DNA of 64,000 bases. Source: an uncultured Actinomycetota bacterium. Lineage in GTDB: Bacteria > Actinomycetota > Actinomycetes > S36-B12. The stretch's first letter is position 1, and each line of letters opens with the position of its first letter. Shown piece by piece: positions 15,721 through 42,054 of the stretch. The stretch is taken from positions 980,235 to 1,044,234 of the forward strand of contig CAVVOF010000003.1 of assembly GCA_963749905.1 (NCBI GenBank), written 5' to 3'. Both the position numbers and the translations under genes were made by a program. The notes beneath the pieces are model-generated. The model was given only the letters and a program-made list of their open reading frames with translations. It did not search any database and had not been told where the DNA came from.

Positions 15721-17268
15721 GTGGAACCCGCCATGGAGTCCTCCACAAACCCGCATGACGAGCGAGTCGAACGCTCCTCGTTGGCCGACTACCTGAGGAC
15801 GAGCCTCGGTCCACTCGAGAGTGCCCACGTGCTGCTCACGGGCTTCAATCACTGGGCCTTCGCGATGGCAGCGGTGGCGGAGACCGCGCTCTGCCTGAAG
15901 GAGATGGGCTCCGCGGTCAGCCTGGCGCTGTGGTCGGACCGCACGCCGATGCGGGACGAGGGTTGGGAGGCCGGCCGCCGCGTGAGCCGGGTCCTCGCCG
16001 ACTCGCTCCCCGGACGCGAACCTCGAACTTGGTCTGATCAAGTCGGGGATATCCCCGGCCGCGTTCGCGGACCCGCCCATCCGTGGGTGGCGGCCGGTCG
16101 AGCCGATCGTGATTCCCCGGCGCTTGAACCGAAGCGAGATCCGGGCGCTCACCTATCGGGGCACTCCGATGGGCAAGGCCATCCTCCAAGTGCATCCAGA
16201 CCGGAATACGCCCATCACCGATGACCACTACTGGCCTCGTCGCTGGATCACCAACGCCGCACGCTCGTATGCGTTCGTGCTCGACCAGACGCTCGCCCTG
16301 GTCAAGCAGAGGGGCATCACCGCGGCACTGGCCTTCAACGGGAGGTTCCTGCATGACCGGGCGGTAGCCGAGGCCGCAGCCCTCGCCGGGATCCCGCTGC
16401 TGTCGACGGACCTTGGCGGCACCGACGCCGACTTCGAGTTGACTGTCGAGCCGACTCACGATTGGGCCGCATTCCAGCGCCGCATCCTCGAGCTTGTACG
16501 CGGCTTGGGATCCGAGCGATCGGGATGCCGTTGGCAGCGGTTGGTTCCTCGACCGGGTGGAGCACCGCGATCCCCAGAACTCGCTGTTCGTCGAGGCGCA
16601 GCGCCGAGGTGAGATGCCCGAGATCCCTCAGGATCGGAAGGTCGTGGTCGTTCTTCAGCTCGTCCGGCGACGAGATGGCCGAACTGGACTTCGACTGGAA
16701 GCAGTACTTCGGTGGTCAGGGCGCTGCCCTGAAGGCTCTTGCGGAGGCCTGCCGCGAGCGCCCAGACACGTTCTTGGTGGTCCGATCACACCCGCACAAG
16801 CGCATCAAGCCCGCGCGCGACGTCGAGGACTGGATGGCGGACGTCGCGGCGGCTGCCCCGGACATGCACCTCGACCCGTTCTCCCCGATCGACTCCTACA
16901 CACTCATGCGCAGGGCGGATGTCGTCGTCACCTACGGGTCAACGACGGGCATCGAGGCTGCCTTCGCTCGCAAGCCGGTGATCGTCATGGGGCCGTCGGC
17001 GTACGGCGAACTGGGCTGCGTGACGGTCGTGCAATCCGAGGAGCAGCTGAAGGCGGCCTTGGATGATCCGGAACCGGGGGACTGGTCTGGAGCGGTGGCT
17101 TTCGGATTGATGATGCGCAAGCGCGGGTTCCGGGTGCGGCACATCGAGAGGCTCGAGGGCGGTGGCTACCGCGTCGGAGGCGTCACCCTAGGCGAGGTCC
17201 GTCCCGCGGCCCGCCATGCCAGTCACCTGCTGGACAGGACGCGGCGGGCCTATCTGAGGAGGAAATGA
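15721..17268 (+). CDS. KpsS/KpsC-like capsule-synthesis family protein, candidate ulosonic-acid transferase (frameshifts)
   Basis: FNGRF, FFSSSGDE, LVVRSHPH, IDSYTLMRRADVVVTYGSTTGIEAA..KPVIV. Confidence 0.7.
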
Positions 17269-17940
17269 GCACGATGGTGGACGTCCGGACGACAGCGCGT
17301 CGAGTTCCCTTCAGCACCGAGATATACGAGTACGTGACGACACGTTCCAGGATGCGCCGGTCCAGGAGCGTGGCCCGAAGAATCCTCGAGTCAGGTCGGG
17401 AGATCAAACTCGACCTCGGTGGAGGGTATGCACCGGGACGCAACGGCTGGGTCAACGTCGACGTGTCGAACGAGGCGGACTTGTTCTGGGACCTTCGCTA
17501 CGGAATCCCCTTCCCGGACGGCACCGTCGACCGGCTGTACTCGAGCCACCTGTTCGAGCACCTGACGTACGAGCAGGGCCGGGCCCTGCTCGATGAGTGC
17601 ATGCGGGTCCTGAAGCCCGGCGGGTCGGTCTCGATCGTCGTGCCGAACGCCCGGATGTTCATCGAGGCCTACCTGTCCGGACGGCCGCTGCCTGCCGAGT
17701 ACCTCGGATGGGAGCCGGCGAACAATCACACGACCGCCATTGACGCGGTCAACTATGTCGCCTACATGGCTGGCGAGCACAAGTACATGTTCGACCAGGA
17801 GAACCTCCTGCACGTCCTCACTGCACGAGGCTTCGAACGGGTCGAGCGGCGGGACTTCGATCCCGGAGACGGATCTGCAGGAGCGGGACTTCGAGAGCAT
17901 CTACGCGATCGGCTACAAGCCGGACCGCGTCAGCCGATGA
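17265..17940 (+). CDS. Class I SAM-dependent methyltransferase (frameshift near the end)
   Basis: KLDLGGGY, WVNVD, DLRYGIPFPDGTVD, SHLFEHL, RVLKPGG, HKYMFD. Confidence 0.85.
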
Positions 17941-19023
17941 GGAGTTGCCAGGTCGTGACGGCCTGGTCCACGACGTTGGCATAGACGACGTCGGATCCCC
18001 ATAGGGTCACCACCGGTGCGAGCCAGACGAGGGTTTCGACAAGTCGAAGCTCGTTCGTCTGCGCGTCCCTCCGGTGCAAGTAGGCCACCGTCAGCAGGAG
18101 CAGGGCAGGTGCCATCACCAGAACGAACACGCGGGGGCGGTCACCGCTGAGCACCGTGGCGGCGACGCCGACCACGAAGGCGCCCGCGAGAACCAGTCGG
18201 GCACGGGGCAGTGGCTGAGAAAGCCAGAAGGCGACGACGATCGCCCACGACCCGGCGAACAGTGACCACAGCAGCATCGGCCCGGTGTTGATGGCCACCT
18301 TCGTCCAGTCGGCGACATAGGGGCCGAGCCAGGCAGTTCGACCGGACGTCGCCGAGCCCGCCGTGATCAGGATGAGCAGCAGCAGCACCTTGCCGGCGAG
18401 GATGCCGATCACACCCCAGCCGGGGTTGGTGTCGCGCAGCCGCCCGGGGAGTTCTGGACGCACGCCGATCCAGACCAGGACGAGGGCCGCCATCCCGAGC
18501 AGGCCGTGCTCGAGGTGCTGAAAGCCGAGGAGTGCCCCGGAGACGGCGAGCAACGCCCTGGACCCGGACAGCCACGAGAACAGGACGACCGCCCAGGCCA
18601 GCATCGTCCAGGGGTCATAGAAGCCGAGCCAGGTGGCCAGCACGCCGATCACCGGGGACAGGACAGCCAGGCGGGCAGCCCGCCAGCGCTGCGTTCTCGG
18701 TGCATTGAGCCACGCCCACGCTCCCCAGCAGCCGGCAACGGCTGCCGATTGCGGCCACGCTCAGCCAGAGGTATGCAGATGGGGATCCGGCGCCGACGAG
18801 CCTGGCGAGCAGTAGCCCGAGTGGGCTGTCGGTGTAGAAGGCCTCGAACTCTCCTGGCAACCGCTGGGGCCAGGCCTGTGCGGCCGCGAGGAGTGCGTCC
18901 AGTGAGGGCGTGACGGTCGGGCCGGCACGCAGGATCGACCAGCCGAGGGCGAGCAACGACGCTGAGGACAGCGATCAGCGAGACCGAGCGGCGGGCACTC
19001 CTAGGCTCGGTCGGGAGGCTCAC
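17930..19023 (-). CDS. Polytopic membrane protein of unknown function (frameshifts)
   Basis: More than 8 hydrophobic segments, including YTDSPLG, FYDPWT, FQHLEHG and GDRPRVF. GTG at 19023 has TAAAGT 7 nt upstream. Confidence 0.55.
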
Positions 19024-19103: not shown

Positions 19104-20800
19104 ATGCCTGAACGGCGGTGGTCCGAGACGGCCCTCGCGTGCGGCTCGATCGGTGCATCTCCCCGCAGCACTTGCCGCCGGTGTCGGACTGCTGACAATC
19201 GCGCTGACCTACGGGGTCTTCGCCGGGTGGGCGACGCTAGGGGAGGGATCGGACCTCGCGACCTACCTGCTTCCTGTGCGAGGGCTCCTTGATGGCGGGC
19301 CGGTCCTCTACGTCGACCTCTTCGACATCAAGCCACCGTTGACGTATGCCTTGCTGGTCCCCGTGGTCGCGCTCACGGGCGGTGCGGCTCGTGCTGGCTC
19401 TGGGCTGCCTACGCCCTGCTCTTGGCGGGCATGCTGGCGGGGACGTGGCTGCTGCTGCGAAGCGTGTTGCCACCGTGGCCCAGCCTGGTGCCGTTCGTGT
19501 CAGCCTGCATGATCGGCGTCTACTTCAGCCTGTTCAACGAGTTGTTCTTCGCCACCGAGGTGCTCGGCATCGTGCTCGTCCTGCGGCGCTCTCGTACTGG
19601 TCATCCGACGTGGACCCGGCACAGTTTCGCTCCTGCGTCGCGGGCGCCCTGACGGGGTCGGCGGGACAGGTGAAGGAGGTCTTCATCTTCTCCGTTCTCG
19701 CCGCTCGTGCCCTTGGCCGTTCGCCATCGCCGGGGTCCGTGGATTGGTCTGGCATGGCTTGTCGGCGGTGCCTTCACGGCGCCTCGTGGCCAGCGTGGTC
19801 GTCCTCCTCATGTGGGGTGCCAGGTGCTCTGCCGGGATACCTCGAGGTGCTCGGGTTCAAGCGGGGGCGGTTCCCTGCCCCGACGCCCGGTGAGGTGGTG
19901 ACTCGACTCCTGTCATATGGGTGGGAGCTCATGCCATTGGCTGCCCCTTGCCGGGGCCCTGCTCGCCGTGTTGGGAACGGTGGCGGCGACGTCGTCGATG
20001 GCTCGGAGGCGTATCACCTCGATCAGCCCGACGTCCGCCGAGGTGGCCCTTGGGTCCTGCCGTTCGTGGTTTCGCGGCGGGTTTCGCCATGGCAGGGATT
20101 CGCCCTTCACGCGTCACTACGCCCTGGCATAGCTGTCGATCCCCCCTCTGGGCTTCCGCAGCTCGGTGCGGGACTGGGCTGCCATGGAGTCTGGCGCGTG
20201 GCGTGCACGCTGTCCCCGATTGTCGGCCCGGTCCTCTCGGCGCTCGTGCCTGATCGGCCTCCTGCTGGCGGTCAGCTCGGTGCTCTGGTTCGGCCAGGTG
20301 CGTCACGGGCTTCTCTCCCGGCGGGCTCGTCGCGCGCGTCGGGGACACTGGAGTCGGCGGGTCGCTGGCGCGCTTCCGTACCTCGTGGTCGGACGTTGAC
20401 CGCCGCCGGTGACTGCATCCAGGTCGCCTACGGATGGTCCGCCAGTGCGTACTACTGGTACGCCGGACCGCGACCCTGTGCTCGCGCTTCTACGTTCCGC
20501 CGCTCGACCTGAGCCCGGATCTGCGGCCGGGAGTACCAGCGGCGCATTATGGATCCGGCGGCCCGGACCGCGCTCATCGTCTACGACCCGGCTCTCGCGG
20601 TCTCGACCACCGTCCCGGCGGAGGAGGGCACTCCGGACGAGGTCATCTTCCCCTTCGCCGCGGTCGTGGCCGCCTGCTATCGAGCCGGTGGTCGGGAACC
20701 GTGCTGTTCTTCCCGTCCGGGGGCGGATGCGGACGGCGACCTCCGCCATGCATCGCCGAGCAGGTGTCCCGGGAGATCCGCAGCCGGCCGCCAGTCCTGA
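19104..20800 (+). CDS. GT-C-like (ArnT/GT39-type) membrane glycosyltransferase (many frameshifts)
   Basis: LYVDLFDIKPP motif after the first TM; QVKEVF; several TMs; C-terminal extracellular domain (QVAYGWSASAYYWY). Confidence 0.6.
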
Positions 20801-20827: not shown

Positions 20828-22152
20828 ATGGGTGGAAGAGGACGGTGCGCCCCGTCGAGGGCGGCTTCATGCACGACCTGGCGCGGGACTGTTCCCCATC
20901 ACGCGCAGCATCACCGGCGACGGCGTGCGCGCCAGACGCTGGCGATCCTGGGCGGGACCTGCCCGGCCTCATGATCCACGAGGTGCCCAGCGGCACGCCG
21001 GCCCTCGACTGGACCGTCCCCGACGAGTGGAACATCCGCGCGCGCCTACCTCGAGGGCCCGGCCGGCCGTCGCATCTCGACCTCGCCGACAGCAACCTGC
21101 ACGTGGTCGGCTACTCCGTGCCGGTCGACGCGGGCACTGACCCTCGGAGGAGCTGCAGCCCCACCTGCACTGCGATCGCCGAGCTACCCGACGCGATCCC
21201 GTACGTCACGAGCTACTACAACCCGCACGTGGGGCTTCTGCCTGACCGAGCAGCGTGCGGCAGTCGCTGGAGCCGGGCGAGTACCGCGCCGTCATCGACA
21301 GCACGCTGGAACCCGGCAGCCTGACCTACGCCGACCTGGTCATCCCCGGCGACACCGACCGAGGAGGTGTTCGTCACCACCTACGTCTGCCACCCGTCGC
21401 TGGCGCAACAACGAGCTGTCGGGTCCGGTGGTGGCCACCGCCCTGGCCCGGTGGGTGCTGTCGCTGCCCCGGCGGCGTTACACCTACCGATTCGTGTTCG
21501 CGCCCGAGACCATCGGCGCGCTCACCTACACCAGCCGGCACCTGTGAGCACCTGCGCGAGCACGTGATCGCCGGCTTCAACCTGACGTGCATCGGCGACG
21601 ACGGGCGACTACTCGTACCTGGCTTCCCGGCGGGCGACCTCGAGTTGGATCGCATCGGCACGTCGTGCTGTCGAACTCGGACGCCCGCAGTCGAGTACTC
21701 CTACCTCGACCGCGGAAGCGACGAGCGGCAGTACGGCGCCCCCGGGATCGATCTGCCGATGATCTCGCTCATGCGCACCAAGTACGGGGAGTATCCCGAG
21801 TACCACACGTCGCTCGACGACCTGACGTTCGTCACCCCGACGGGCCTGCAGGGTGGGCTCGACCTCGTCCGCGATTGCATCGAGGCGGTGGAGGTTGAAC
21901 GAGTACTACGAGGCGACGGTGCTGGGCGAGCCACAGTTCGGCCGTCGCGGGCTGTACCACCTCGTGCGCCCGCGGGTGGTGGAGGACGTGGTGTACCTGC
22001 GCAGGAACGTCCTGGCATACGCCGACGGTGAGCACTCGGTGGTCGACATGGCGGTGTTGTTCGGGCTGCCCATCGGGGATGTCGCGGCTGTGGTGGACGA
22101 GTTGACGTCACACGGACTGCTGAGACGAGTCGATAGGGACAGGACGGTGTGA
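20828..22152 (+). CDS. DUF4910 domain protein (M28 peptidase-like with C-terminal HTH; frameshifts)
   Basis: [104 protein letters not shown] before ATG at 20828. Confidence 0.88.
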
Positions 22153-22859
22153 TGGCGGCCGACGCCCTTGCCATCATCCCTGCGCGCGGCGGGTCGCGGC
22201 GGTTTCCCGGAAGAACCTCAGGGAGATGTCCGGCCGGCCGTTGATCGCTTGGGCCATCGAGACGGCCCTTGCTTCGGGGGAGTTCGGGCTGGTCGTGGTG
22301 TCGACAGACGACGATGAGATCGCTGAGGTGGCGCGTGCATCGGGGGCCGACGTACCGTTCGTCCGCCCGAAGGCACTGTCGGGCGATCATGCGACGACGG
22401 GTGCTGTCATGGCGCACGCGGTCGCGTACCTCCAGCGGACGGGCTTCGCGGGCACCGACGTCTGCTGCGTCTACCCGGGGGCGATCTTCGTGGTGCCTGA
22501 CGATCTCGTGGCCAGCCGCAGGATGCTCGACGTCCACCCGCCCGAGGACTATGTGATGGCGGTCGTCGGGTATCCGCATCCGGTGCAGCGTGCGCTTAGG
22601 GTCGACTCCACTGGAGTGGCGCTGCCGGTCAACCCGGAGTTCGTTCGCACGCGCACTCAGGATCTCGAGCCACGTGGCATGACGCGGGGCAGTTCTATTG
22701 GGGTACCGCAGAGCGTGGTCGCAGGATCTGCCGGTGCATGGGAACGCCCGTGCGTATGTCCTCGACGGCCGGCAGGTCGTCGACATCGACTCTGAGGATG
22801 ACTGGAGGCATGCCGAGTGGCTGCATGATCGGATGCTCCGCGAGCCTCCTAAGCCGTGA
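22152..22859 (+). CDS. pseF: Pseudaminic acid cytidylyltransferase (CMP-Pse synthetase; frameshifts)
   Basis: AIIPARGGS, GRPLIAWAI, VVVSTDDDEIA, VPFVRP, CCVYP, RTRTQDLE, DIDSEDDW. TGATG overlap with DUF4910. Confidence 0.85.
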
Positions 22860-23535
22860 GCAGGCGCCTGGTGTCGGGGCCGACGTTGAGCAGGGCATCG
22901 ACTGCGGACAGGTACGGCACGAAAGGGCCGTGGAGCTGCGGGTACTCGGGGTGCGGATAGGAGTGATACTCCACGGTGATCCCGTGGGCGGCGAAGCCAG
23001 TCTCCTGCGAGGTGTACGGACGCGACCCGCCGCGCGCGAGGTAGTGGGAGGCGCCCAGTTCGCGGCATTGGGCAACGGTCAACTCTGTGCGGCGCCCCGT
23101 CGCGCTCAGATCGCTTCCGAGGATGATCCGGGTCGTGATGCCCATCTGTGCAGCCAGCCAGCGGATCGGTACACGCGTTGAACGAGCCGAGCAAGGGCAT
23201 GCCGCTCTTAACGAGATCGGTGAGCCCGGGAAGGTACTGAGCCGCGAACGGCGACTTGCGCGTACGGCGGTCTGCAGTGACTTGGCGTGGGTAGCGCCGA
23301 ACCGGGTCTCGAGGTTGATCTCGGGTGGCGGCGATGGGCCGCTCGCACCGGTCCCTTGCGGATCGGGATCGTCAGCATCAGCTCCCCCTGGGAGGTCTTG
23401 ATCCGGTTCCGCTGCTGCCAGCTGGACTTCTCGTACTGCACGTTGTCGAGCAGCACGAAGACATCGACCCGCGCCATCATGTCGAAGTAGCCCAGCCACG
23501 GAAGATACGGTCGGCTGCATGATTGCCACCTTCAC
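22849..23535 (-). CDS. WbqC family protein (putative glycyl/aminoacyl transferase; frameshifts)
   Basis: VAIMQP..PWLGYFDMMARVDVFVLLDNVQYEKSSWQQRNRIKT, YPHPEYPQLHGPFVPYLSAVDALLNVG. Confidence 0.9.
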   Translation of the reverse strand: MKVAIMQPTVSSVAGLLRHDGAGRCLRAARQRAVREVQLAAAEPDQDLPGGADADDPDPQGTGASGPSPPPEINLETRFGATHAKSLQTAVRASRRSRLSTFPGSPISLRAACPCSARSTRVPIRWLAAQMGITTRIILGSDLSATGRRTELTVAQCRELGASHYLARGGSRPYTSQETGFAAHGITVEYHSYPHPEYPQLHGPFVPYLSAVDALLNVGPDTRRLLTA

Positions 23536-24614
23536 GGCGAACCTCCGTCGCTGGTCTCGAGGCGGGACCCACGGTAGCGCGAGCATCGGCCCAGGCCTGC
23601 TCCCGACCATCCACGAGGCGCGCAGCCGCAGCCCCCATCGAGGTGAGGGCATCGGGGCTGCGGGACAGCGTCGTGAGGGCCTCGTTCCACTCGGAGGCGG
23701 ATATGTCCTGCAGGGCCCCGAGGTGCCGCGTGGCTCCCGCAGCCTGGAAGGAGGCGCAGTCAGGCGCCTGGTTGGGGTGTGTGAGGACGGTGAGGGTGGG
23801 CAGCCCGGCCGCGCACCGCTCCCACTGGGCCCCGCCGGGCGCACCGATGGCCAGGTCCGCAGTCTCGAGCAGGGGAACCATCGTCTCCACGTGGTCGAGG
23901 ACGGTGACCGAGCGAAGCGCCGCGGCCCGCTCGTGGACGGCGGCGCGGTCGGGAAATGCAAGGCCGAGGACGATCGTCGTGTGGCCGATGGGGAGCGCTG
24001 GATCGGCGAGAGCATCGAGGAGCGGCTGCAGGTCGGCGCCTTGCGTGGCTCCGCCGAGGAAACGAGCAGATCGTGCACGCGACCATCGCGAGGCTTCGGG
24101 TGTAGCCACGTCGTCGAACGGATCGAGCGGGCGAACCGAGGGCCGTAGCAGATACAGGGGTGCAGGAGCCACGGCCTGGTCGTCGACAGAGCCGGGATAC
24201 CGATCGGGGATCAGCGTCGATGGTGGGATCGATGAGTACGTCGCATCGTGTGAGCCGGTCAGCGAGGTCGTCGATGACGATACGCATGCTCGTGCAGGCC
24301 GAGACCATCCCTCTCCCACGTGGCGGCACAAGCTCGTAGTGGTCGACCACTGCGAGCGCTATGGGCATCAGGTCCGTGACGGCGGCCAGCGGCCAGCGCG
24401 GGCGTCCGAGGCCTTGGTCCGGCTGGTGGTCGATGACGCGCACGGACCACCCGGAGGTCCTCGACCCGGCGACGAGTGCCTTCGGGCACGGACGTGCACA
24501 CCAGGGCGACCTGGCCACTGGTGGGCTGGAGGCGCAGCTGAGAAGTGCCGAGCACCGGACCACGTGCCCGGTCCCGATCGTCTCGTCCGCGTCCGCGCGA
24601 ACGAGCACGCTCAT
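23532..24614 (-). CDS. pseG: UDP-2,4-diacylamido-2,4,6-trideoxy-beta-L-altropyranose hydrolase (frameshifts)
   Basis: VRADADETIGTGHVVRC, VVDHY, VIDDLADR, AIGAPGGAQWERCAAGLP, NQA, VDG; ATGA-coupled to pseI. Confidence 0.85.
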
Positions 24615-25660
24615 GCGAGCAGGTCCCACGCCAAGGGGGTGCCGCGCTCGACGTCGCGCGCCAGAGTTCGGCCGATGACGTCGCCCAGGTGCTTGTGGGG
24701 GCAGGCCATAGCCGGGACGGATGGCCCGGACATCGTCGGCCCCGAGCAGGTTCACCAGCTCGCTTGTCGCGGACTATGTATAGGGATCGTCGGTAGATGA
24801 GGGAGGGAACCTCCTCGGGCGCCGGTCCGAAGGACACGATGCCTCGTGCCCGCCAGGCCCGGCCCGCCTCCTCGACCATGGCGCGCAGTTCGTCGGGCTC
24901 GAGTGAGAACGCGCTGTCGACCGCACCATCGGCTCGACGCAGCGTGACGTGCTTCTCGATGACAGTCGCGCCCAGTGCCACGCTGGCCACCGGCACCCCG
25001 ATGCCGAGGGTGTGATCGGAGAGGCCGACCTCGCAGCCGAACGCCTCGGCCAGCACGGGGATGGCCGCCAGGTTGCTCGCCTCGGGCGGAGCGGGGTAGG
25101 TACTGGTGCACTTGAGGAGGACGAGCTCGGTGCAGCCAGCGGCGCGTGCTGTCGACACGGCCTCGTCGATCTCGGCGAGGGTGGCCATGCCGGTGGAGAT
25201 GATGACCGGCTTCCCGGTGCGTGCGACTTTCTCGATCAGCGGGAGGTCGGTGTTCTCGAACGAGGCGACCTTGTAGGCCGGGACGTTCAGGGACTCGAGG
25301 AAGTCCACGGCGGACGCGTCGAAGGGGGTGCTGAACGCCGTCAGACCGCGGGCACGCGCCCTGTCGAATATCGCACCGTGCCACTCCCAAGGCGTGTGCG
25401 CCTGTTCGTAGAGGGCATAGAGGTGGGACCCGAACCAGGGGCTCTCAGGCTCGCGGATCACGAATCCGGGCACCGTCGCAGTCCAGAGTCATCGTGTCTG
25501 CCGTGTACGTCTGCAGTTTGATGGCGTCGGCTCCTGCATCCGCCGCAGCGTCGACGATGGCTAGAGCCGTGTCGAGCGAGCCGCCATGGTTGCCCGATAG
25601 CTCAGCGATGACATAGGGGGCGTGCTCCGGGCCGATGTCGCGTCCGTTGATGGTGATCAT
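24611..25660 (-). CDS. pseI: Pseudaminic acid synthase (frameshifts near 25470 and 24760)
   Basis: [84 protein letters not shown]. Confidence 0.93.
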
Positions 25661-27843: not shown

Positions 27844-30068
27844 TCACGGACAACTCGCCAACCTCAGAATTGATACATCGGGAGCTGACCAGATCGACGT
27901 CGCGTACGGTTCCCAGCTGCGCGTGGCGGTCCGGGCGGGGTCCACCCAGACCCATCGGACACCCGCCGAGCACAGGGCCTGCGCCTCGACTCCGTCGGCG
28001 AGTCGATGAACTCCCAGGCCTGCTGCTCGCGATCGACCAGGGTGGGCAGCTGGCCGGGCCGTCCGTAGGGAGCCTGGTACTGAGTGCCGGAGACCCACGT
28101 GCGCAGGCCGGACAGTGCGGGAACGAGGGGGCTGAAGGTGATGTTGGTCAGGACGATGTCATCCCTCGCCGCCGATGTCCCGTGGCAGCCAGCGCCCGCA
28201 GCCGCCTCCTCGGAAGACCACGCCGGTCTCGCGCACGGTGTCGATTCCGTCGACGAACGGCTCCCGCGGGGTGAACGACGCGTCGCTGAGGCCCGTCGCG
28301 GACTGGACTCCGAACGAGGTGGCTGCCACATCCCAGGAGACGCCCGGGTGCAGCCGCGACGACGAGCACGAGGACCGTACATCGCCAGCCATCGAGCGCG
28401 GTAGGAGCCGCGCAGGGAGCGATGGCGGCTGATCAGGCGACCGACGACGCCGCCGAGAAGTACCCCGCAAGGGCAACTGGTGGTCCCAGCCACCGCAGCG
28501 AGGACACCCATACATTGCCCCCCGACCCCCCGGTCAGCCAAAACGCCGGCAACGACACCGGATAGAGCCAGGCCTGCAACCACCGTCCAGGCGAGCGGTC
28601 GGGTGATCCAGGCCGACCTGCTGGCAGCTCCAACCGCCGCAGCAGCTCTTCCGGCACCTGCGGCACTGATGACGCTGAGGGGAGCTGAAGCAGCCAGGGC
28701 GAACCAAGTGTCGTTCAGCCCGCCGCTGACAAGGAGGACGGTGGCGATTCCGGCGACGGCAAGTCCCGTGCCGAGAAGTGACACCGGCGACCAGCGGGAT
28801 CGGGGACTCGCCGCCAGCCATGCAAGTCCCGACCACCGGACTGCGATGGCGATGGCGAGGATCGCTGTGCCCAGCGCGATCCCGAGCGACGAGTTGAGGG
28901 GGTTGAGACCTTGCACGCTCGATGCGCGGTCGACCAACTGCCCGAGGGCGAGTCCGCCCGGGTCGGCCGAGCCGGAGACGATGAGGAGGTAAGCCGTGAC
29001 CAGTCCAGCGCCAGCCGCAGCAGTGCCGGCAAAGGCACGACCTTGCCACTCGGCGCGGCGGAACGCGCCCGTCAGCCACACGAGACCCATGGCTGCAACT
29101 CCCACGGCACCCGAGCTGATCTTGCCGCCAGCGGTCGCGAACCCCAGGAGGGCGAGGACTGCCGACAGGGGCGCCGTCCGATCGGGACGGCGCAGCAGCC
29201 TCAGGAAGACGACACACATCGCGAGAAGCCACGCGGTGCTGACGGCCTGCGAAGGGGAGTCGAAGTTGAGGATGGTTCCGTACGTTGCTCCGACGTAGCC
29301 ACCGAGCAGCACGAGCGCCACGGCCAACGTCGGTACCCACGGCACCCGGCTCAGTCGTCCCGCCCACGACACCGCGATGAGCACGACCATCGTCGTCGCC
29401 GTGAACGGCAGCACCCGAGTGAGGACGGCGAACGGGTCTGCCGCCGAGGCCTCCGCAACCTGACCTGACCATGCGTAGACCAGCCAGTGGTAGCGCACCT
29501 GGCCGCCGCTCAGGAAGACGCTGTCCAAGGGGCCGTAGCGAGCCATCGAGGTGCTCAGTGCTTCGAAGAAGAGCATGTCGGGGTGGTAGCGCTCCCACAC
29601 GCCCGTCCATGTGAGTGGGTAGTTGGCGAGGTTCACTGCCAGCGACAGCAGCCCGAGCGCGGCGCCGGCGAGCAGCCCGAGAGCGGAGCCGGTGCTGAGT
29701 CGGGCCAACGGTCTCATCGTCGTCTGCCGACCTCGTCCGACTACTCGGCCCAGCACGAGCGCGGCCAGTGCGGCGGCGGCAGGCAGCGCCCATCCCCACG
29801 ATCCGAGGCCGAGGGTGCGCACGAGAAGCCCGGAGATGACCGCGGCCGCGGTCCCGATCGCCAGCCCCAGCCCGGCCAGTTCCAGGACATCCGCTCGACG
29901 ACGGGTCAGCCGACTCCAGGCGTATGCCCCGGCCCAGCCTTGGAGCCCGATCACGGCGATCGCGATGAGGCCCGAGGCCGGAGAGACGCCGGTTGCCAGG
30001 AGAAAGCCGAAGGCGACGATGGAGATCAGCCCCGGGAGGACCCACGGGCGTGTCAGCAGGGTGGTCAT
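27844..30068 (-). CDS. Large polytopic membrane protein, GT-C-like (3' frameshifts)
   Basis: More than 12 TM segments; YHPDMLFFEALS, YHWLVYAWSG, FDSPSQ, GGKISSG; C-terminal extracellular domain. Confidence 0.6.
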
Positions 30069-38172: not shown

Positions 38173-39057
38173 CTACTCCGCGTCTCGAACGGCCTCGATG
38201 ACGCCTGCCGAGCACAGGAACATGCCGCGCCAGGTGCCTTCATGCTCCATCTCGAAGGCGGCTCGCCGGTACGCCTCGGTGCCGATCGTGGCCTCCAGCA
38301 TCGGCGGTGCCGGATGGTAGTGGTACCAGTGGAACTGCACGTCGTGGTACCCGCACGCACGCACGGTGTCCGCGAGTTCGAAGGGGTTGTGGAAGCGGGA
38401 CAGGATCTCGTCGTAGCCGGGCTTGCCATCGGTGCCGACGCGCCGCGGCGGCTTGTCCACGGCCAACCGGCGGTCGAGCTCAGCCTCCACGACGGCTCGG
38501 ACCTCAGCCGGCACTCCCGCTAGGAGCTCGTCGAGGAAGAACTCCTTCGTCGGGCGGTTGAGGGTGTACAGGGAGAACATGGAGTTGCGAAACTCCAGGA
38601 AGATGCGGCCGCCGGGCTTGGTGAACATGGACATCGAGTCAATGAAGCGGACATCGTCGGGGACGTGGGGGATGACGCCCAGGGCCATGACCGCGTCGAA
38701 CTGCCCGAACCGGTCGAGGTGCCCCTGGAGCGACGAAGGATCATCGCCGTCGGCCAGGCTGATCAGATCGGGATCGAGGCCTGCGGCCGAGAAGTTCGAC
38801 CGGGCCGCCTCCACCATCGCGGGGGCGACGTCGCACCCGGCAACTGTCAGGCCAGCCCTGGAGGCCGCGATCAGTGGTGAACCCTCCCCTGCGCCGATGT
38901 CGTAGATCGACGTACAGCCGGTCTCCTGCAGACGCCGGATGACCATCTCTAGACGGAAGAAGTTGGCCGGGTAGGTGGGGTGAGACATCAGCCGCTCGCG
39001 CTGATACTGCTCGGAGTAGCCCGCGGCGATGTCGTCGTAGTACGAGGCGATGGACAT
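38173..39057 (-). CDS. Class I SAM-dependent methyltransferase
   Basis: YYDDIA, IYDIGAGEG, GCDVAPAMV, FDAVMALGVIPH, KPGG; intact. Confidence 0.88.
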   Translation of the reverse strand: MSIASYYDDIAAGYSEQYQRERLMSHPTYPANFFRLEMVIRRLQETGCTSIYDIGAGEGSPLIAASRAGLTVAGCDVAPAMVEAARSNFSAAGLDPDLISLADGDDPSSLQGHLDRFGQFDAVMALGVIPHVPDDVRFIDSMSMFTKPGGRIFLEFRNSMFSLYTLNRPTKEFFLDELLAGVPAEVRAVVEAELDRRLAVDKPPRRVGTDGKPGYDEILSRFHNPFELADTVRACGYHDVQFHWYHYHPAPPMLEATIGTEAYRRAAFEMEHEGTWRGMFLCSAGVIEAVRDAE

Positions 39058-39075
39058 GTCCCTACGATAGCCAGC
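39058..39075. promoter_or_regulatory. Bidirectional leaderless promoter with overlapping -10 boxes
   Basis: TACGAT on + (39063-39068) lies 7 nt before GTG at 39076. TATCGT on - (39069-39064) lies 6 nt before ATG at 39057. Confidence 0.7.
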
Positions 39076-39876
39076 GTGGTGGATCCGAGCAGTGCGCGGC
39101 GGGTGCTGCTCGTCGTCGCCACCCTGGGGCAGCGCACCGCATTCCTGCGCGAGACCCTCGACTCGATCCGGACGCAGGCGGTGCCGGCGGACATCGTCGT
39201 CGTGGCCCCGGAGTCGTCTGAGCCCACTCGGGCACTTGCCGACGAGTTCGGCTGTCTGTTCGTGCCTGATCCGGGCAGCCTCACGTCGGCCATCAACCTG
39301 GGGGTCAGAGCCGGCCTCCGCGGTCACGAGTTCGTCAACTGGCTGAATGACGATGACGTGCTCGAGGCGGGTTCGCTCGCGGCGACGTCAGGGCTGCTGG
39401 ATTCCGATCCGGCAGCAGTGGTCGCATACGGCGCCTGCCGGTACATCGACCCCGAGGGTCGTGAGCTGTGGGTCAGCCGTGCTGGTCCGTGGGCGAACCG
39501 GATCCTCGGGTGGGGACCGGACCTGATACCTCAGCCCGGCATGCTGGTCAGGGCCTCGGCCTGGGTGGACGTTGGCGGGGTGGACGAGTCCTTCCGGTTC
39601 GCGTTCGACCTCGATCTGCTCCTGCGGCTCAGGCGCCTGGGTGCGCTGCGGGACACCGGCGCGGTCGTCTCTGCCTTCCGCTGGCATGAGGACTCGCTGA
39701 CCGTCGGGGACCGCAGCCAGTCCCTCGCCGAGTCTGAGCGAGCGAAGCGCGCCGCTCTCGGCCCGACGGCGCGCCGGCTGGCATGGGTGTGGGAAGGCCC
39801 GGTGCGCGTCGCCACCCGGATGGCCGCCCGGGAAGTCAGTCGCCGCGCCCGACGCGTTGCCCAGGGCCACGGCTAG
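39076..39876 (+). CDS. GT2 glycosyltransferase
   Basis: LVVATLGQR, AINLG, WLNDDDVL, IPQPG, GGVDESFRFAFDLDL; intact. Confidence 0.88.
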   Translation: MVDPSSARRVLLVVATLGQRTAFLRETLDSIRTQAVPADIVVVAPESSEPTRALADEFGCLFVPDPGSLTSAINLGVRAGLRGHEFVNWLNDDDVLEAGSLAATSGLLDSDPAAVVAYGACRYIDPEGRELWVSRAGPWANRILGWGPDLIPQPGMLVRASAWVDVGGVDESFRFAFDLDLLLRLRRLGALRDTGAVVSAFRWHEDSLTVGDRSQSLAESERAKRAALGPTARRLAWVWEGPVRVATRMAAREVSRRARRVAQGHG

Positions 39877-39910: not shown

Positions 39911-40894
39911 GTGTCGGAGTTCGATGGCTCGTCCATCCTCATCACCGGTGGCACCGGTTCGTTCGGCAAGGCGTTCCTCGCCGGGATCCTGGCGGCCCAC
40001 GACCCGCATCGGGTGATCGTCTACTCGCGCGATGAACTCAAGCAGTACGAGATGCGCGCCACCTTCGGCGACGATCTTCGCGTGCGATTCTTCATCGGGG
40101 ACATCCGGGACCGGGATCGACTGCGAATGGCCCTCCACGGCGTCGACTACGTCGTGCATGCTGCGGCGCTGAAGCAGGTGGACACCGCGGAGTACAACCC
40201 GATGGAGTTCGTCAAGACGAACATCCTCGGGTCGGAGAACGTCATCATGGCCGCACTCGATGCCGGGGTGAAGAAGGTCGTCGCGCTCTCCACAGACAAG
40301 GCGTCGTCGCCTATCAACCTCTACGGAGCCACGAAGCTGACCGCCGACAAGCTGTTCGTGTCGGCCAACCACTACGGCTCGAGCTACGGGACGACCTTCT
40401 CCGTGGTCCGCTATGGCAACGTCATGGGCAGTCGTGGGTCGGTCATCCCGTACTTCCGCTCCCTGGCGCAGAAGGGGGAGCCCCTGACGATCACGGACGC
40501 CCGAATGACGCGGTTCTGGATCACGCTCCCGCAAGCCGTCGACTTCGTGATGCGCAGCTTCGAGGTGATGGTCGGCGGGGAGCTCTACGTTCCCCGTATC
40601 CCCAGCACGCGGATCATCGACCTTGCGGAGGCCATCGCGCCGGGGTCACCCACGATCGAAACGGGCATTCGCCCCGGGGAGAAACTGCACGAGGAGATGA
40701 TCTCGGTCGAGGATGCCCGTAGGACCATCCGCCAGGACGACCGGTACATCGTTCTGCCGACGTTGGCGGAGTGGAACTTCACGCCGCCAACCGGCGAGGC
40801 AGTTCCGGAGGGCTTCGCGTACGCCTCCGACACCAACGAGCAGTGGCTCGACGTCAGGGAGATCAGGGCGCTGCTGGACCAGCTGGGGCTCTGA
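39911..40894 (+). CDS. pseB: UDP-N-acetylglucosamine 4,6-dehydratase (inverting)
   Basis: ILITGGTGSFG, YSRDELKQY, HAAALKQVDTAEYNP, LSTDKASSPINLYGATKL, VRYGNVMGSRGSV, MTRFWITL, GIRPGEKLHE. Confidence 0.95.
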   Translation: MSEFDGSSILITGGTGSFGKAFLAGILAAHDPHRVIVYSRDELKQYEMRATFGDDLRVRFFIGDIRDRDRLRMALHGVDYVVHAAALKQVDTAEYNPMEFVKTNILGSENVIMAALDAGVKKVVALSTDKASSPINLYGATKLTADKLFVSANHYGSSYGTTFSVVRYGNVMGSRGSVIPYFRSLAQKGEPLTITDARMTRFWITLPQAVDFVMRSFEVMVGGELYVPRIPSTRIIDLAEAIAPGSPTIETGIRPGEKLHEEMISVEDARRTIRQDDRYIVLPTLAEWNFTPPTGEAVPEGFAYASDTNEQWLDVREIRALLDQLGL

Positions 40895-40899
40895 CGCGG

Positions 40900-42054
40900 T
40901 CAGTTGAGCGCACTGAGCACCGCGTCGATCACCTGGTCGACCTCCGTGTCCGACAGCCTCGTATGCATCGGCAGGGAGATCTCGCGACGGTAGTACTCCT
41001 CTGCGCGCGGGCAGAGCCCTCGCGGATATCGCGAGGAGTCGAACGCCGGATGCCAGTAGGCCGGAATGTAGTTCACCTGGACGCCGATACCAGCATCGCG
41101 AAGGCTGACGAACGCTTCCGTCCGACGATCCTCAGGGACCCGGAGCGGGTAGAGGTGCCACATTGGGTCCACATCGGCCTCGGCGAAGGGGACGCGCACT
41201 CCCGGAAGAGTCACGAAGGCCTCGTCATAGCGTGACTTGATCTCCCCGCGCCTCGCCTTGAAGGAGGCGAGACGGCGCAGCTGGCTGGTGCCGAGGGCAG
41301 CGAGCAGGTCGGGGAGGCGGTAGTTCAGCCCGAACTCGTGTACCTCCTGGTGCCACGGCCCCTCGGTGGTGATGCGGAACTCGGACGGGTCGCGCACGAG
41401 TCCCTGTCGAGCGAATCGACGGGCCCGGTCGAGTAGCGCGGGGTCGCGGGCGAGCACGGCGCCGCCCTCGCCGGTGGTGACATTCTTCGTGGGGAAGAAC
41501 GACAGGGTGGTCAGGTCGGCAAGTGTTCCGACGGGCCGGCCACGGAAGACCGTGCCGATGCTGTGGGCCGCGTCCTCGATGAGCAGCAGCCCGCGCTCGT
41601 CGCACAGCGCCCTGAGCGCGTCCATGTCGGCAGGATGACCGGCGTAGTCGACGGCCGTGATCGCCCGAGTGCGGGGGGTCACCGCGGCGGCGGCGGCGCC
41701 GACATCGAGACACCCCGTGTCCGAGCTGACGTCGGCGAAGACGATGTCCGCCCCCAGGAGCGCGGCGGTGGCCTGGGTTGCCACGAAGGTCAGTGGTGGT
41801 GTGATGACCTCGTCGCCGGGGCCGATGCCCGCAGCCGCGTAGGCCACATGCAGGGCGGCGGTGCCCGACGACACGGCTACGGCCGGGGCGCCGCAGATGG
41901 CGCTGATGGCAGCCTCGAATTCGGCCACGGCAGGTCCGGTGGTGAGCCAGTCGCCCTTCAGGACGGCCTCCACGGCCTCGACGTCTGCGGCGTCGATGTC
42001 ATGACGGCCGTATGGGATCACCGACGTCGCCTCTCGTCGTGGGGATGGGCTCAT
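40900..42054 (-). CDS. pseC: UDP-4-amino-4,6-dideoxy-N-acetyl-beta-L-altrosamine transaminase (DegT/DnrJ family)
   Basis: IPYGRHDID, DWLTTGP, SSGTAALH, IEDAAHS, SFFPTKNVTTGEGG, GLNYRL, QVNYIP, ISLPMH. Start may instead be GTG at 42021. Confidence 0.9.
   Translation of the reverse strand: MSPSPRREATSVIPYGRHDIDAADVEAVEAVLKGDWLTTGPAVAEFEAAISAICGAPAVAVSSGTAALHVAYAAAGIGPGDEVITPPLTFVATQATAALLGADIVFADVSSDTGCLDVGAAAAAVTPRTRAITAVDYAGHPADMDALRALCDERGLLLIEDAAHSIGTVFRGRPVGTLADLTTLSFFPTKNVTTGEGGAVLARDPALLDRARRFARQGLVRDPSEFRITTEGPWHQEVHEFGLNYRLPDLLAALGTSQLRRLASFKARRGEIKSRYDEAFVTLPGVRVPFAEADVDPMWHLYPLRVPEDRRTEAFVSLRDAGIGVQVNYIPAYWHPAFDSSRYPRGLCPRAEEYYRREISLPMHTRLSDTEVDQVIDAVLSALN

Follow-up and report, generated by a model that had tools for sequence, protein, structure and literature searches.

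Introduction

Cj1295 of Campylobacter jejuni, classed in the literature with the DUF4910-type proteins (PMC3068675; PMC6321876), is needed for the Pse5(2,3-di-O-methylglyceroyl)7Ac glycoform of pseudaminic acid (Pse), a requirement established only in C. jejuni (PMC3068675). The genetic link between the Cj1295/DUF4910 family and modified Pse was found 16 years ago. The association of the family with nonulosonic-acid clusters in several phyla was set out by Hitchen et al. (2010; PMC3068675), who noted members in Frankia and Streptomyces and clusters with sialic-acid-synthase-like genes. It was taken up again by Das et al. (2014; PMC4000134) for actinobacteria, firmicutes, cyanobacteria, bacteroidetes and planctomycetes, in which genes of a nucleotidyltransferase, an N-acetyltransferase and a methylase were linked to it. 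The idea of a deacetylase or transacylase activity for the family comes from the same two papers. In the structure described by Das et al. (2014; PMC4000134), PDB 3K9T, the site is unlike that of a classical M28 two-zinc peptidase, the canonical site not being preserved, and the zinc originates from the crystallisation buffer.

Here we describe a DUF4910 gene coupled to pseF within a 64,000-nt stretch of DNA (the window) belonging to an uncultured high-GC actinobacterial MAG. The two genes form a real and conserved unit of a Pse island, translationally coupled through a TGATG junction. It is probable, in our judgement, that the frameshifts interrupting them are long-read consensus errors, and that the DUF4910 protein works as a mono-metal amidohydrolase or transacylase. 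The locus adds little to the C. jejuni work and the 2014 structure paper; it supplies an intact actinobacterial orthologue set (L012, see below) fit for expression, a swap of the acidic ligand between two adjacent positions, and a list of fusion partners.

Identity of the DUF4910 gene and its junction with pseF

The fragments of the gene in the window matched the Pfam models DUF4910, DUF2172 and HTH_47, all in the right order (stops in broken genes were read as X in the family scan), and the intact orthologues in G009 and in L012, a syntenic metagenome contig with every gene intact, gave full-length matches to all three. The gene thus has the layout of the family, a DUF4910 core with DUF2172 inserted within it and HTH_47 at the C-terminus. 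Its ATG at 20828 lies 8 nt downstream of a GGAGG and agrees with the start of the L012 orthologue. Frameshift-aware alignment gave 77% amino acid identity to the G009 protein and 85% to that of L012, and a genus orthologue was ~47% identical to 3K9T (E 3e-99). The orthologue had no Peptidase_M28 Pfam match at E <= 0.01, weak matches to this model appearing only in two remote members of the family. Environmental bacteria hold very many such proteins, 4,827 representatives of 50%-identity clusters being matched at E <= 0.001.

The initial annotation took Cj1295 to be a DUF4910-type protein, tied to di-O-methylglyceroyl-modified Pse, in agreement with the literature cited above, and homology to Cj1295 was confirmed by direct comparison. 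In C. jejuni GB55, reached together with other genomes of the species by means of a genus-specific 16S primer sequence, the gene directly after pseB-pseC also encodes a DUF4910, DUF2172 and HTH_47 protein. Over ~430 aligned residues it shared 48% of positions with the L012 protein (E 3e-154) and 46% with the protein stitched together from the frames of the window (E 7e-140).

Stop/start overlaps of 1 or 4 nt are frequent in operons and unremarkable per se. The overlap of one base between the DUF4910 gene and pseF, already reported in the initial annotation, held up: the stop TGA (22150-22152) and the ATG (22152-22154) share one base in ...GTG TGA TGG..., a junction of the same 1-nt type is present in L012 (GCCTGATGGCA), L013 and L014, all intact, and the junction is covered by an independent contig of 465 nt built from short reads (run X1). 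The operon is probably headed by the gene of a multi-pass membrane protein (Table 1). The 17.9-20.9 kb region of the window gave no Pfam match on either strand; the intact L012 proteins that match it are membrane proteins, one of them with a weak GT87 match.

Table 1. Features of the Pse island, with positions in the window.
Feature	Position	Strand	Evidence
Membrane protein, multi-pass, 515 aa in L012, 22 frameshifts here	19195..20782	+	Weak GT87/GT-C-like match, GT87 E 9e-5
Cj1295/CA_C2195-family (DUF4910) gene, ~436 codons	20828..22152	+	Pfam matches, frameshift-aware alignments to orthologues, DNA alignment to two intact orthologues
TGATG stop/start overlap, DUF4910 gene / pseF	22150..22154	+	Direct sequence reading
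pseF (CMP-pseudaminic acid synthetase), ~235 codons, 3 frameshifts	22152..22859	+	NCBIfam PseF, CTP_transf_3
WbqC-like gene, convergent with pseF, last in pseI-pseG-wbqC operon	22831..23535	-	Pfam WbqC; 7 frameshifts vs L012
pseG	23527..24614	-	Partial NCBIfam PseG match; 7 frameshifts
pseI (pseudaminic acid synthase)	24616..25660	-	PseI 339 + 73.8 bits on pieces; 3 frameshifts
Methyltransferase 38182-39057 (-) and GT2 39091-39750 (+), divergent pair	38182..39750	.	tblastn with G009 proteins, 57% and 71% identity
pseB, intact, no stops	39920..40873	+	TIGR03589 486.6 bits, cut-off 407.75
pseC-like aminotransferase, intact	40909..42018	-	TIGR03588 396.8 bits, cut-off 423.5; Pfam DegT_DnrJ_EryC1 365.9

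Frameshifts and the quality of the assembly

The initial annotation left the frameshifts of both genes unmentioned, an account that has to be corrected, as neither is open in the window. Relative to intact orthologues, the DUF4910 gene carries 17 single-base frameshifts and one more just after the ATG (at least 18), as well as at least two compensating pairs, and pseF carries three, near 22209, 22673 and 22711, its stop at 22857-22859 being correct. Plain tblastn of an orthologue crosses frames and cannot count frameshifts, and was therefore replaced by our own frameshift-aware alignment.

Taken as deposited, a sequence so interrupted could reflect a real decay into pseudogenes, in this strain, of the DUF4910 gene, of pseF and of most of the island, and the best run found in the search for the source reads of the assembly shares only 0.13 of words. 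We regard such decay as highly improbable. Across 5,983 codons of 16 genes, 90 frameshifts were counted against a single in-frame stop, and substitutions fell mostly at the third codon position, the same pattern as between intact orthologues. The frameshifts affect 15 of the 16 consecutive genes (13 of the 14 compared neighbours besides the DUF4910 gene and pseF) in a block reaching the end of the contig, in which frame-switch density is ~2-3 times the background; noise likewise rises over the contig's first 50 kb. The pseF frameshift near 22205-22209 is missing from two short-read contigs of 99% identity, of which one derives from RNA, and short-read contigs of other samples carry the corrected bases at predicted sites. 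The DUF4910 gene is intact in L013 and L014, as in L012, and the same genes are split in the few-contig relatives G004, G005 and G019.

The frameshifts thus extend over the whole region, stops are lacking and the codon pattern is kept. Real pseudogenisation and a programmed or biological origin were rejected on these grounds, and the interruptions of the two genes and of their neighbours are best read as consensus errors that poor polishing left in a long-read assembly. The evidence for this reading, although indirect, is very strong. This region of the window is not usable for gene calling before polishing.

The pseudaminic acid island

The genes pseF, pseG, pseI, pseB and pseC all lie within 20 kb of the DUF4910 gene. 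Since frameshifts split pseF, its score against PseF (TIGR03584, cut-off 205.7) is divided among pieces of 151.3 and 33.7 bits, and the intact L012 orthologue (75% identical) reaches 257 bits. In the same contig, the intact pseG orthologue scored 194.1 bits (cut-off 153.55) and pseI 481.8 bits (cut-off 340.25); the window pseI, 92% identical to the latter at the amino acid level, scored 205.7 bits with NeuB against the two PseI values of Table 1. The pathway is incomplete: PseB, a PseC-like protein, PseG and PseI were found but no PseH, its best score being 18.5 bits against a cut-off of 93.1. The step must therefore fall to a different N-acyltransferase, unless the 4-amino group is dealt with in some other way. 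A fold search with a confident model of the WbqC-like protein gave no significant PDB match. Six or more methyltransferases are encoded in the island. The members of the divergent methyltransferase and GT2 pair are orthologues of the two genes flanking DUF4910 in other species of the genus and are here adjacent, with no DUF4910 gene between them.

Beyond this locus, DUF4910 and NeuB-family synthases co-occur in the genus (13/1/5/6, Fisher p 0.02), and wherever contigs permit, a distance of 3-27 kb separates the two. In other species of the genus it is coupled to a methyltransferase instead of pseF and often adjoins NeuB-family genes scoring under the PseI cut-off, and these two features point to a link with nonulosonic acids generally, not with Pse or PseF specifically. 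The inference of the initial annotation that the link of DUF4910 spans phyla holds for nonulosonic-acid clusters; neither this nor the deacetylase/transacylase idea is new, both having been published (Hitchen et al., 2010; Das et al., 2014).

The putative metal site

An alignment of 152 sequences (150 diverse representatives, L012 and 3K9T) revealed that His189 and His324 (3K9T numbering) are invariant or nearly so. The acidic putative ligand is D195, within an N-D-N motif, in 58 of the 152 sequences and E196, within an N-N-E motif, in 91-94; the latter (~60%) is common to the window protein, L012 and the Cj1295 orthologue. Both histidines are kept in the window protein, with the acid moved by one residue and Glu as the putative ligand, and the resulting pattern H / N-N-E / H is identical to that of the Cj1295 orthologue. 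A near-invariant His/His/acid triad, in which D195/N196 is exchanged for N195/E196 in a compensated manner, suggests that a metal or catalytic site is conserved.

This conservation bears on whether the protein is a catalyst at all. It could instead be a non-catalytic scaffold or regulator, its winged helix and ligand pocket organising or controlling the Pse enzymes, as might be suggested by the HTH_47 domain, present at the C-terminus in every case, by its close coupling or fusion to a variety of enzymes of the pathway, and by the existence of M28-fold proteins without catalysis, such as the transferrin receptor (PMC4000134). Both the near-invariant triad with its compensated swap and the view of Das et al. 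(2014; PMC4000134) that the permuted winged helix serves oligomerisation and not DNA binding speak against a non-catalytic role of this kind, which we therefore hold to be very unlikely.

Fusion partners and the proposed function

Among the 150 representatives, 11 are fused to an AAC(3)-like N-acetyltransferase, accounting for 11 of the 20 extended proteins, and this domain is homologous to the product of the gene neighbouring Cj1295. Further fusions were to formyltransferases (2), methyltransferases (2), an AMP-binding enzyme (1) and an aminotransferase (1). A natural CTP_transf_3::DUF4910 fusion was also found, adjoining a NeuB/SAF gene and a formyltransferase gene; this single case is known from one 4.6-kb contig and could be an indel artefact in its turn. 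Partners such as AAC(3)-like acetyltransferase, formyltransferase, acyl-adenylating enzyme and cytidylyltransferase suggest that N-acyl groups of the sugar are exchanged.

We infer that the DUF4910 protein, with an M28-like metallohydrolase fold, a DUF2172 insert and a winged-helix tail, probably acts as a mono-metal amidohydrolase or transacylase that takes an N-acyl group off Pse or one of its precursors, or swaps it. The likeliest target would be the acetyl on N5, which stems from UDP-GlcNAc. Its removal could make room for a different acyl or methylated group before the PseF-activated sugar goes to a surface glycan, and the nearby methyltransferases may decorate the new acyl group or the sugar. 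No AAC(3)-like, ACP or FkbH-like gene for a replacement acyl group was found in the island, so the chemistry of C. jejuni may not carry over.

The missing separate acyltransferase would also fit a different activity, in which the DUF4910 protein itself transfers an acyl or aminoacyl group (a peptide, glutamine or other acyl) to the amino sugar without deacylation (Das et al., 2014), or acts on the finished glycan and not on a nucleotide sugar. The active site departs from that of typical hydrolytic M28 enzymes (PMC4000134), and fusions with an acyl-adenylating enzyme and a class-III aminotransferase are likewise in keeping with a transferase. The commonest fusion partner, however, is already an N-acyltransferase, which fits a division of labour between removal and addition, and the DUF4910 protein has neither a signal peptide nor a membrane anchor. 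Moreover, metabolomics of C. jejuni reportedly revealed di-O-methylglyceroyl-Pse in CMP-linked form (Logan, 2009, cited in PMC3068675), so that the modification precedes transfer. Action as a transferase or on the finished glycan is thus unlikely, although the least unlikely of the alternatives to N-acyl removal or exchange.

More speculatively, the DUF4910 enzyme might join PseF in acting on the sugar once activated or just before its activation, with the WbqC-like protein supplying or replacing N7 acylation without PseH and the methyltransferases adding to an undescribed Pse derivative. Cooperation with PseF is supported by the conserved 1-nt coupling and by the cytidylyltransferase fusion found elsewhere; the scheme as a whole is doubtful, a shade more so than the transferase activity just discussed.

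Comparison with known systems

The closest counterpart, Cj1295 of C. jejuni NCTC 11168 (PIRSF015244; PMC3068675), has the same three-domain architecture, with 46-48% identity for its GB55 orthologue, shares the CHPS-x-A-N-N-E-LSG and YHTS motifs, and is likewise set among pse genes with methyltransferase genes nearby. The C. jejuni gene follows pseB-pseC and is phase-variable via a poly-G tract, whereas the gene described here lies before pseF, overlapping it by 1 nt, and after the gene of a GT-C-like membrane protein. In C. jejuni it adjoins an AAC(3)-like gene, a methyltransferase gene and an HAD/FkbH-like gene, of which the AAC(3)-like and FkbH-like genes have no counterpart detected in this island, and the modified target is flagellin, in contrast to the cell-wall glycan of a monoderm that is the probable target here.

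CA_C2195 of Clostridium acetobutylicum (3K9T; PMC4000134) possesses the same domains and a neighbourhood of the same type, with a NeuB-like synthase, a nucleotidyltransferase, methyltransferases and glycosyltransferases. Its His189 and His324 are kept in the window protein, while Asp195 is replaced by Asn with Glu at the next position, placing the two in the N-D-N and N-N-E subtypes, respectively. With peptidase family M28 the protein shares the core alpha/beta fold, the insert sitting where M28 enzymes have the PA domain (PMC4000134); unlike the co-catalytic zinc aminopeptidases of that family, it retains three canonical ligands only, which leaves a single putative metal site, and its context is sugar biosynthesis, not proteolysis. 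Finally, the downstream gene fits the PseF equivalog (TIGR03584; Cj1311, HP0326) far better than KdsB models, with an intact orthologue above the curated cut-off and with pseB, pseC, pseG and pseI co-occurring; it differs from described PseF systems in its three frameshifts within this assembly and in belonging to a pathway without a recognisable PseH.

Structure of the DUF4910-pseF junction

The initial annotation placed a DUF4910 gene immediately upstream of, and overlapping, a pseF gene for CMP-pseudaminic acid (CMP-Pse) synthetase, and its coordinates and identities are borne out by the junction sequence, the family matches and the start of the intact orthologue. Positions 22148-22156 read GTG TGA TGG, one base being common to the TGA that ends DUF4910 (22150-22152) and the ATG that starts pseF (22152-22154). 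The ATG at 20828, preceded by GGAGG 8 nt upstream, corresponds to where the intact orthologue begins. Among Pfam families, fragments of the first gene match DUF4910, DUF2172 and HTH_47, and the downstream gene matches Pfam CTP_transf_3, with the NCBIfam PseF equivalog far outscoring the KdsB models. The TGATG overlap is kept in three metagenome contigs from three samples (L012, L013 and L014), encoding a DUF4910 protein of 436 aa and a PseF of 235 aa, and run X1 provides a 465-nt contig that crosses the junction; the coupling is real. Stop/start overlaps of this kind are ordinary operon features. In a marine-sediment short-read contig (window 21901-22364), identity to the window is about 92% at the 3' end of DUF4910 and 99% at the 5' end of pseF, a step that suggests a recombination break near the junction.

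Frameshifts in the window sequence

Neither gene is an open frame in the window, where three-frame translation shows the coding sense of DUF4910-pseF switching frame every 50-100 bases. Frameshift-aware alignment of DUF4910 with its intact orthologue in the same-genus genome G009 (433 aa) gave 16 shifts, 77% amino acid identity and no in-frame stops. DNA alignment with two intact orthologues revealed 17 single-base indel columns found in the window alone, 12 of them insertions and 5 deletions; about half lengthen a homopolymer. Between the orthologues themselves there are just two gap events: the first, at the start, is a multiple of three bases long, and the second lies at the alignment end. 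The pseF gene carries three shifts, near 22209, 22673 and 22711.

The protein closest to the DUF4910 product rebuilt across frames (P0095, 83% identity) is encoded on L012, a JGI metagenome contig of 123 kb on which all genes are intact. L012 is syntenic with window 10.7-30.8 kb, the nucleotide identity being about 77%. Alignment of 16 L012 proteins detected 90 one-base frameshifts in 5,983 codons, affecting 15 of 16 consecutive genes between 10865 and 30068 (22 in the membrane protein gene upstream of DUF4910, 17 in DUF4910, seven each in wbqC and pseG, three each in pseF and pseI), together with a single in-frame stop. The frameshifts are read as assembly errors. Neutral decay producing 90 indels would also have left many nonsense codons. 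Codon differences between the window and G009 DUF4910 are concentrated at third positions (142 vs 79 and 60), about half being synonymous, a substitution pattern much like that between two intact orthologues. In addition, short-read contigs from other samples show single-base differences exactly at predicted frameshift sites, and two contigs with 99% identity across the first part of pseF, of which one comes from an estuary metatranscriptome, carry a frame-restoring extra base at 22205. GC3 frame tracking counted, per 4 kb, 20-26 frame switches from 11.8 to 27.8 kb, mostly 12-22 from 27.8 kb to the contig end and mostly 6-10 upstream. From about 7.7 kb onward the switch density is some two to three times background, and it is likewise raised in the source contig's first 50 kb. 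The errors are patchy, as pseB and pseC lie 18 kb from the junction and are both intact.

Split DUF4910 genes also occur in three few-contig genomes of the genus (G004, G005 and G019), two of which have low completeness scores, while the gene is intact in all highly fragmented relatives, in G013 (20 contigs) and in single-contig G018; the split copies probably reflect the same long-read error problem. Among the sequencing runs searched for window words, none shared more than 0.13 of them. Gene calls between 10865 and 30068, and on to the contig end, need polishing before use.

Gene content of the island and rearrangement within the genus

Features of the pseudaminic acid island and related loci
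Feature	Window position	Strand	Other contig	Evidence
Capsule_synth (KpsS-like)	15733-17263	+		intact orthologue
Multi-pass membrane protein	17935-18978	-		faint or no family match; kept in L012
Multi-pass membrane protein	19195-20782	+		faint GT87-like match, E 9e-5; kept in L012
DUF4910	20828-22152	+
pseF	22152-22859	+		L012 orthologue 257 bits, exceeds cut-off
WbqC-like gene	22831-23535	-	L012 12003-12707	closes pseI-pseG operon
pseI				intact L012 orthologue 481.8 bits, exceeds cut-off
pseG				intact L012 orthologue 194.1 bits, exceeds cut-off
Multi-pass membrane protein	27849-30068	-		faint or no family match; kept in L012
GT2 and methyltransferase genes	38182-39750			back to back, adjoining pseB
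pseB	39920-40873			486.6 bits, cut-off 407.75
pseC-like aminotransferase	40909-42018			396.8 bits, cut-off 423.5
AAC(3)-like homologue, C. jejuni GB55			L138 3564-4307	stand-alone
CTP_transf_3::DUF4910/DUF2172/HTH_47 fusion			L139 231-2201	P0264

Beyond the pse genes, the island contains six or more methyltransferase genes of varied type, a PhyH-type dioxygenase, GT2, GT4 and GT61 genes, GT-C-like membrane proteins, a WecA-type transferase and an ABC transporter. This content suggests that the locus serves a surface glycan that contains Pse and is heavily methylated. A candidate for the Pse transferase is the product of the Capsule_synth gene, whose intact orthologue has weak NCBIfam matches to 'surface carbohydrate biosynthesis protein' and 'BFO_1060 family glycosyltransferase'. 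No PseH was found in the whole genome (best score 18.5 bits, cut-off 93.1), and the WbqC-like protein may supply the missing N-acylation step; its intact orthologue gave a confident AlphaFold model (pLDDT 94.6) with no significant match in the PDB (best Foldseek E 0.07, TM about 0.2).

In G013 and G009, DUF4910 is coupled not to pseF but to a SAM-dependent methyltransferase gene (by TGATG and ATGA, respectively), with a divergent GT2 gene upstream. As the orthologous GT2 and methyltransferase genes are adjacent in the window without DUF4910 between them, DUF4910 has changed partners inside the island, moving about 17 kb to precede pseF.

Across the genus, a NeuB-family synthase is present in 13 of 14 DUF4910-positive genomes vs 5 of the 11 that lack DUF4910 (Fisher p 0.02), at 3-27 kb from DUF4910 where contigs allow. 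Because many of these synthases do not reach the PseI cut-off, the association is with nonulosonic acids in general.

Relationship to Cj1295 and conservation of a putative metal site

The G009 orthologue matches the Clostridium acetobutylicum structure 3K9T (CA_C2195; E 3e-99). Three Campylobacter jejuni genomes, reached via a 16S primer sequence, each contain one DUF4910 gene, and C. coli has a split copy. In C. jejuni GB55 the order dcd, pseB, pseC, DUF4910 places the gene in the Cj1295 position, and its product carries all three domains. This GB55 protein shares 48% identity with its L012 counterpart (E 3e-154) and 46% with the rebuilt window protein (E 7e-140), which confirms the homology to Cj1295 supposed in the initial annotation.

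The Zn ligands of 3K9T are His189, Asp195 and His324 (PMC4000134). An alignment of 152 sequences (L012, 3K9T and 150 that represent 50%-identity clusters) shows no variation at His189 and almost none at His324. The acid position reads Asp195 then Asn in 58 sequences and Asn then Glu in 91-94; Asn-Asn-Glu occurs in the window, L012, the Cj1295 orthologue and each of the 119 close relatives whose motif could be read. This compensated carboxylate shift between adjacent positions argues for a conserved, putative metal or catalytic site.

With 4,827 representatives at E <= 0.001, the family is very large; extra domains occur in 20 of the best 150. In eleven of these 150 the added domain is N-terminal and of the AAC(3)-like Antibiotic_NAT type (P0122, P0123, P0129, P0132, P0140, P0154, P0155, P0161, P0198, P0205 and P0235), an arrangement that looks like a fused remove-and-re-acylate pair. 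Five of the eleven domains are 35-45% identical to the C. jejuni gene adjoining Cj1295; in GB55 this AAC(3)-like homologue is stand-alone and convergent, followed by a SAM methyltransferase and an HAD/FkbH-like gene. Other partners among the best 150 are formyltransferase (2), SAM methyltransferase (2), an AMP-binding enzyme, UDP-glucose dehydrogenase, a class-III aminotransferase and a CTP_transf_3 cytidylyltransferase, with one extension lacking assignment. The cytidylyltransferase fusion (P0264), flanked by a NeuB/SAF gene and a formyltransferase, may be an indel artefact, its sole source being one 4.6-kb metagenome contig.

Proposed function and comparison with described systems

The N5 acetyl group of Pse comes from UDP-GlcNAc, so any other N5 substituent needs a deacetylation step. 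The DUF4910 protein would act as a deacylase or transacylase on a Pse intermediate, no later than the CMP-sugar stage, a reading to which we give slightly more credence than doubt. It draws on the metallohydrolase fold with its conserved His/His/carboxylate site, the repeated fusion to N-acyltransferases and acyl-activating enzymes, and the genetic dependence of the C. jejuni N5-(di-O-methylglyceroyl) form on Cj1295 (PMC3068675). The main alternative is that the DUF4910 protein would itself transfer the new group.

The deacylase or transacylase reading and the linkage across phyla are already published. Hitchen et al. (2010; PMC3068675) reported the Cj1295 family in Frankia, Streptomyces and other phyla, in sugar clusters with sialic-acid-synthase-like genes, and suggested that the protein cleaves the C5 acetamido group. 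Das et al. (2014; PMC4000134) solved 3K9T, defined the three Pfam families, described linkage to nucleotidyltransferase, N-acetyltransferase and methylase genes in five phyla, and proposed transacylation or deacylation. The cross-phyla link of DUF4910 to nonulosonic-acid clusters holds; the interpretation put forward in the initial annotation restates these two studies, and the locus is a further member of the Cj1295/CA_C2195 family type that they described.
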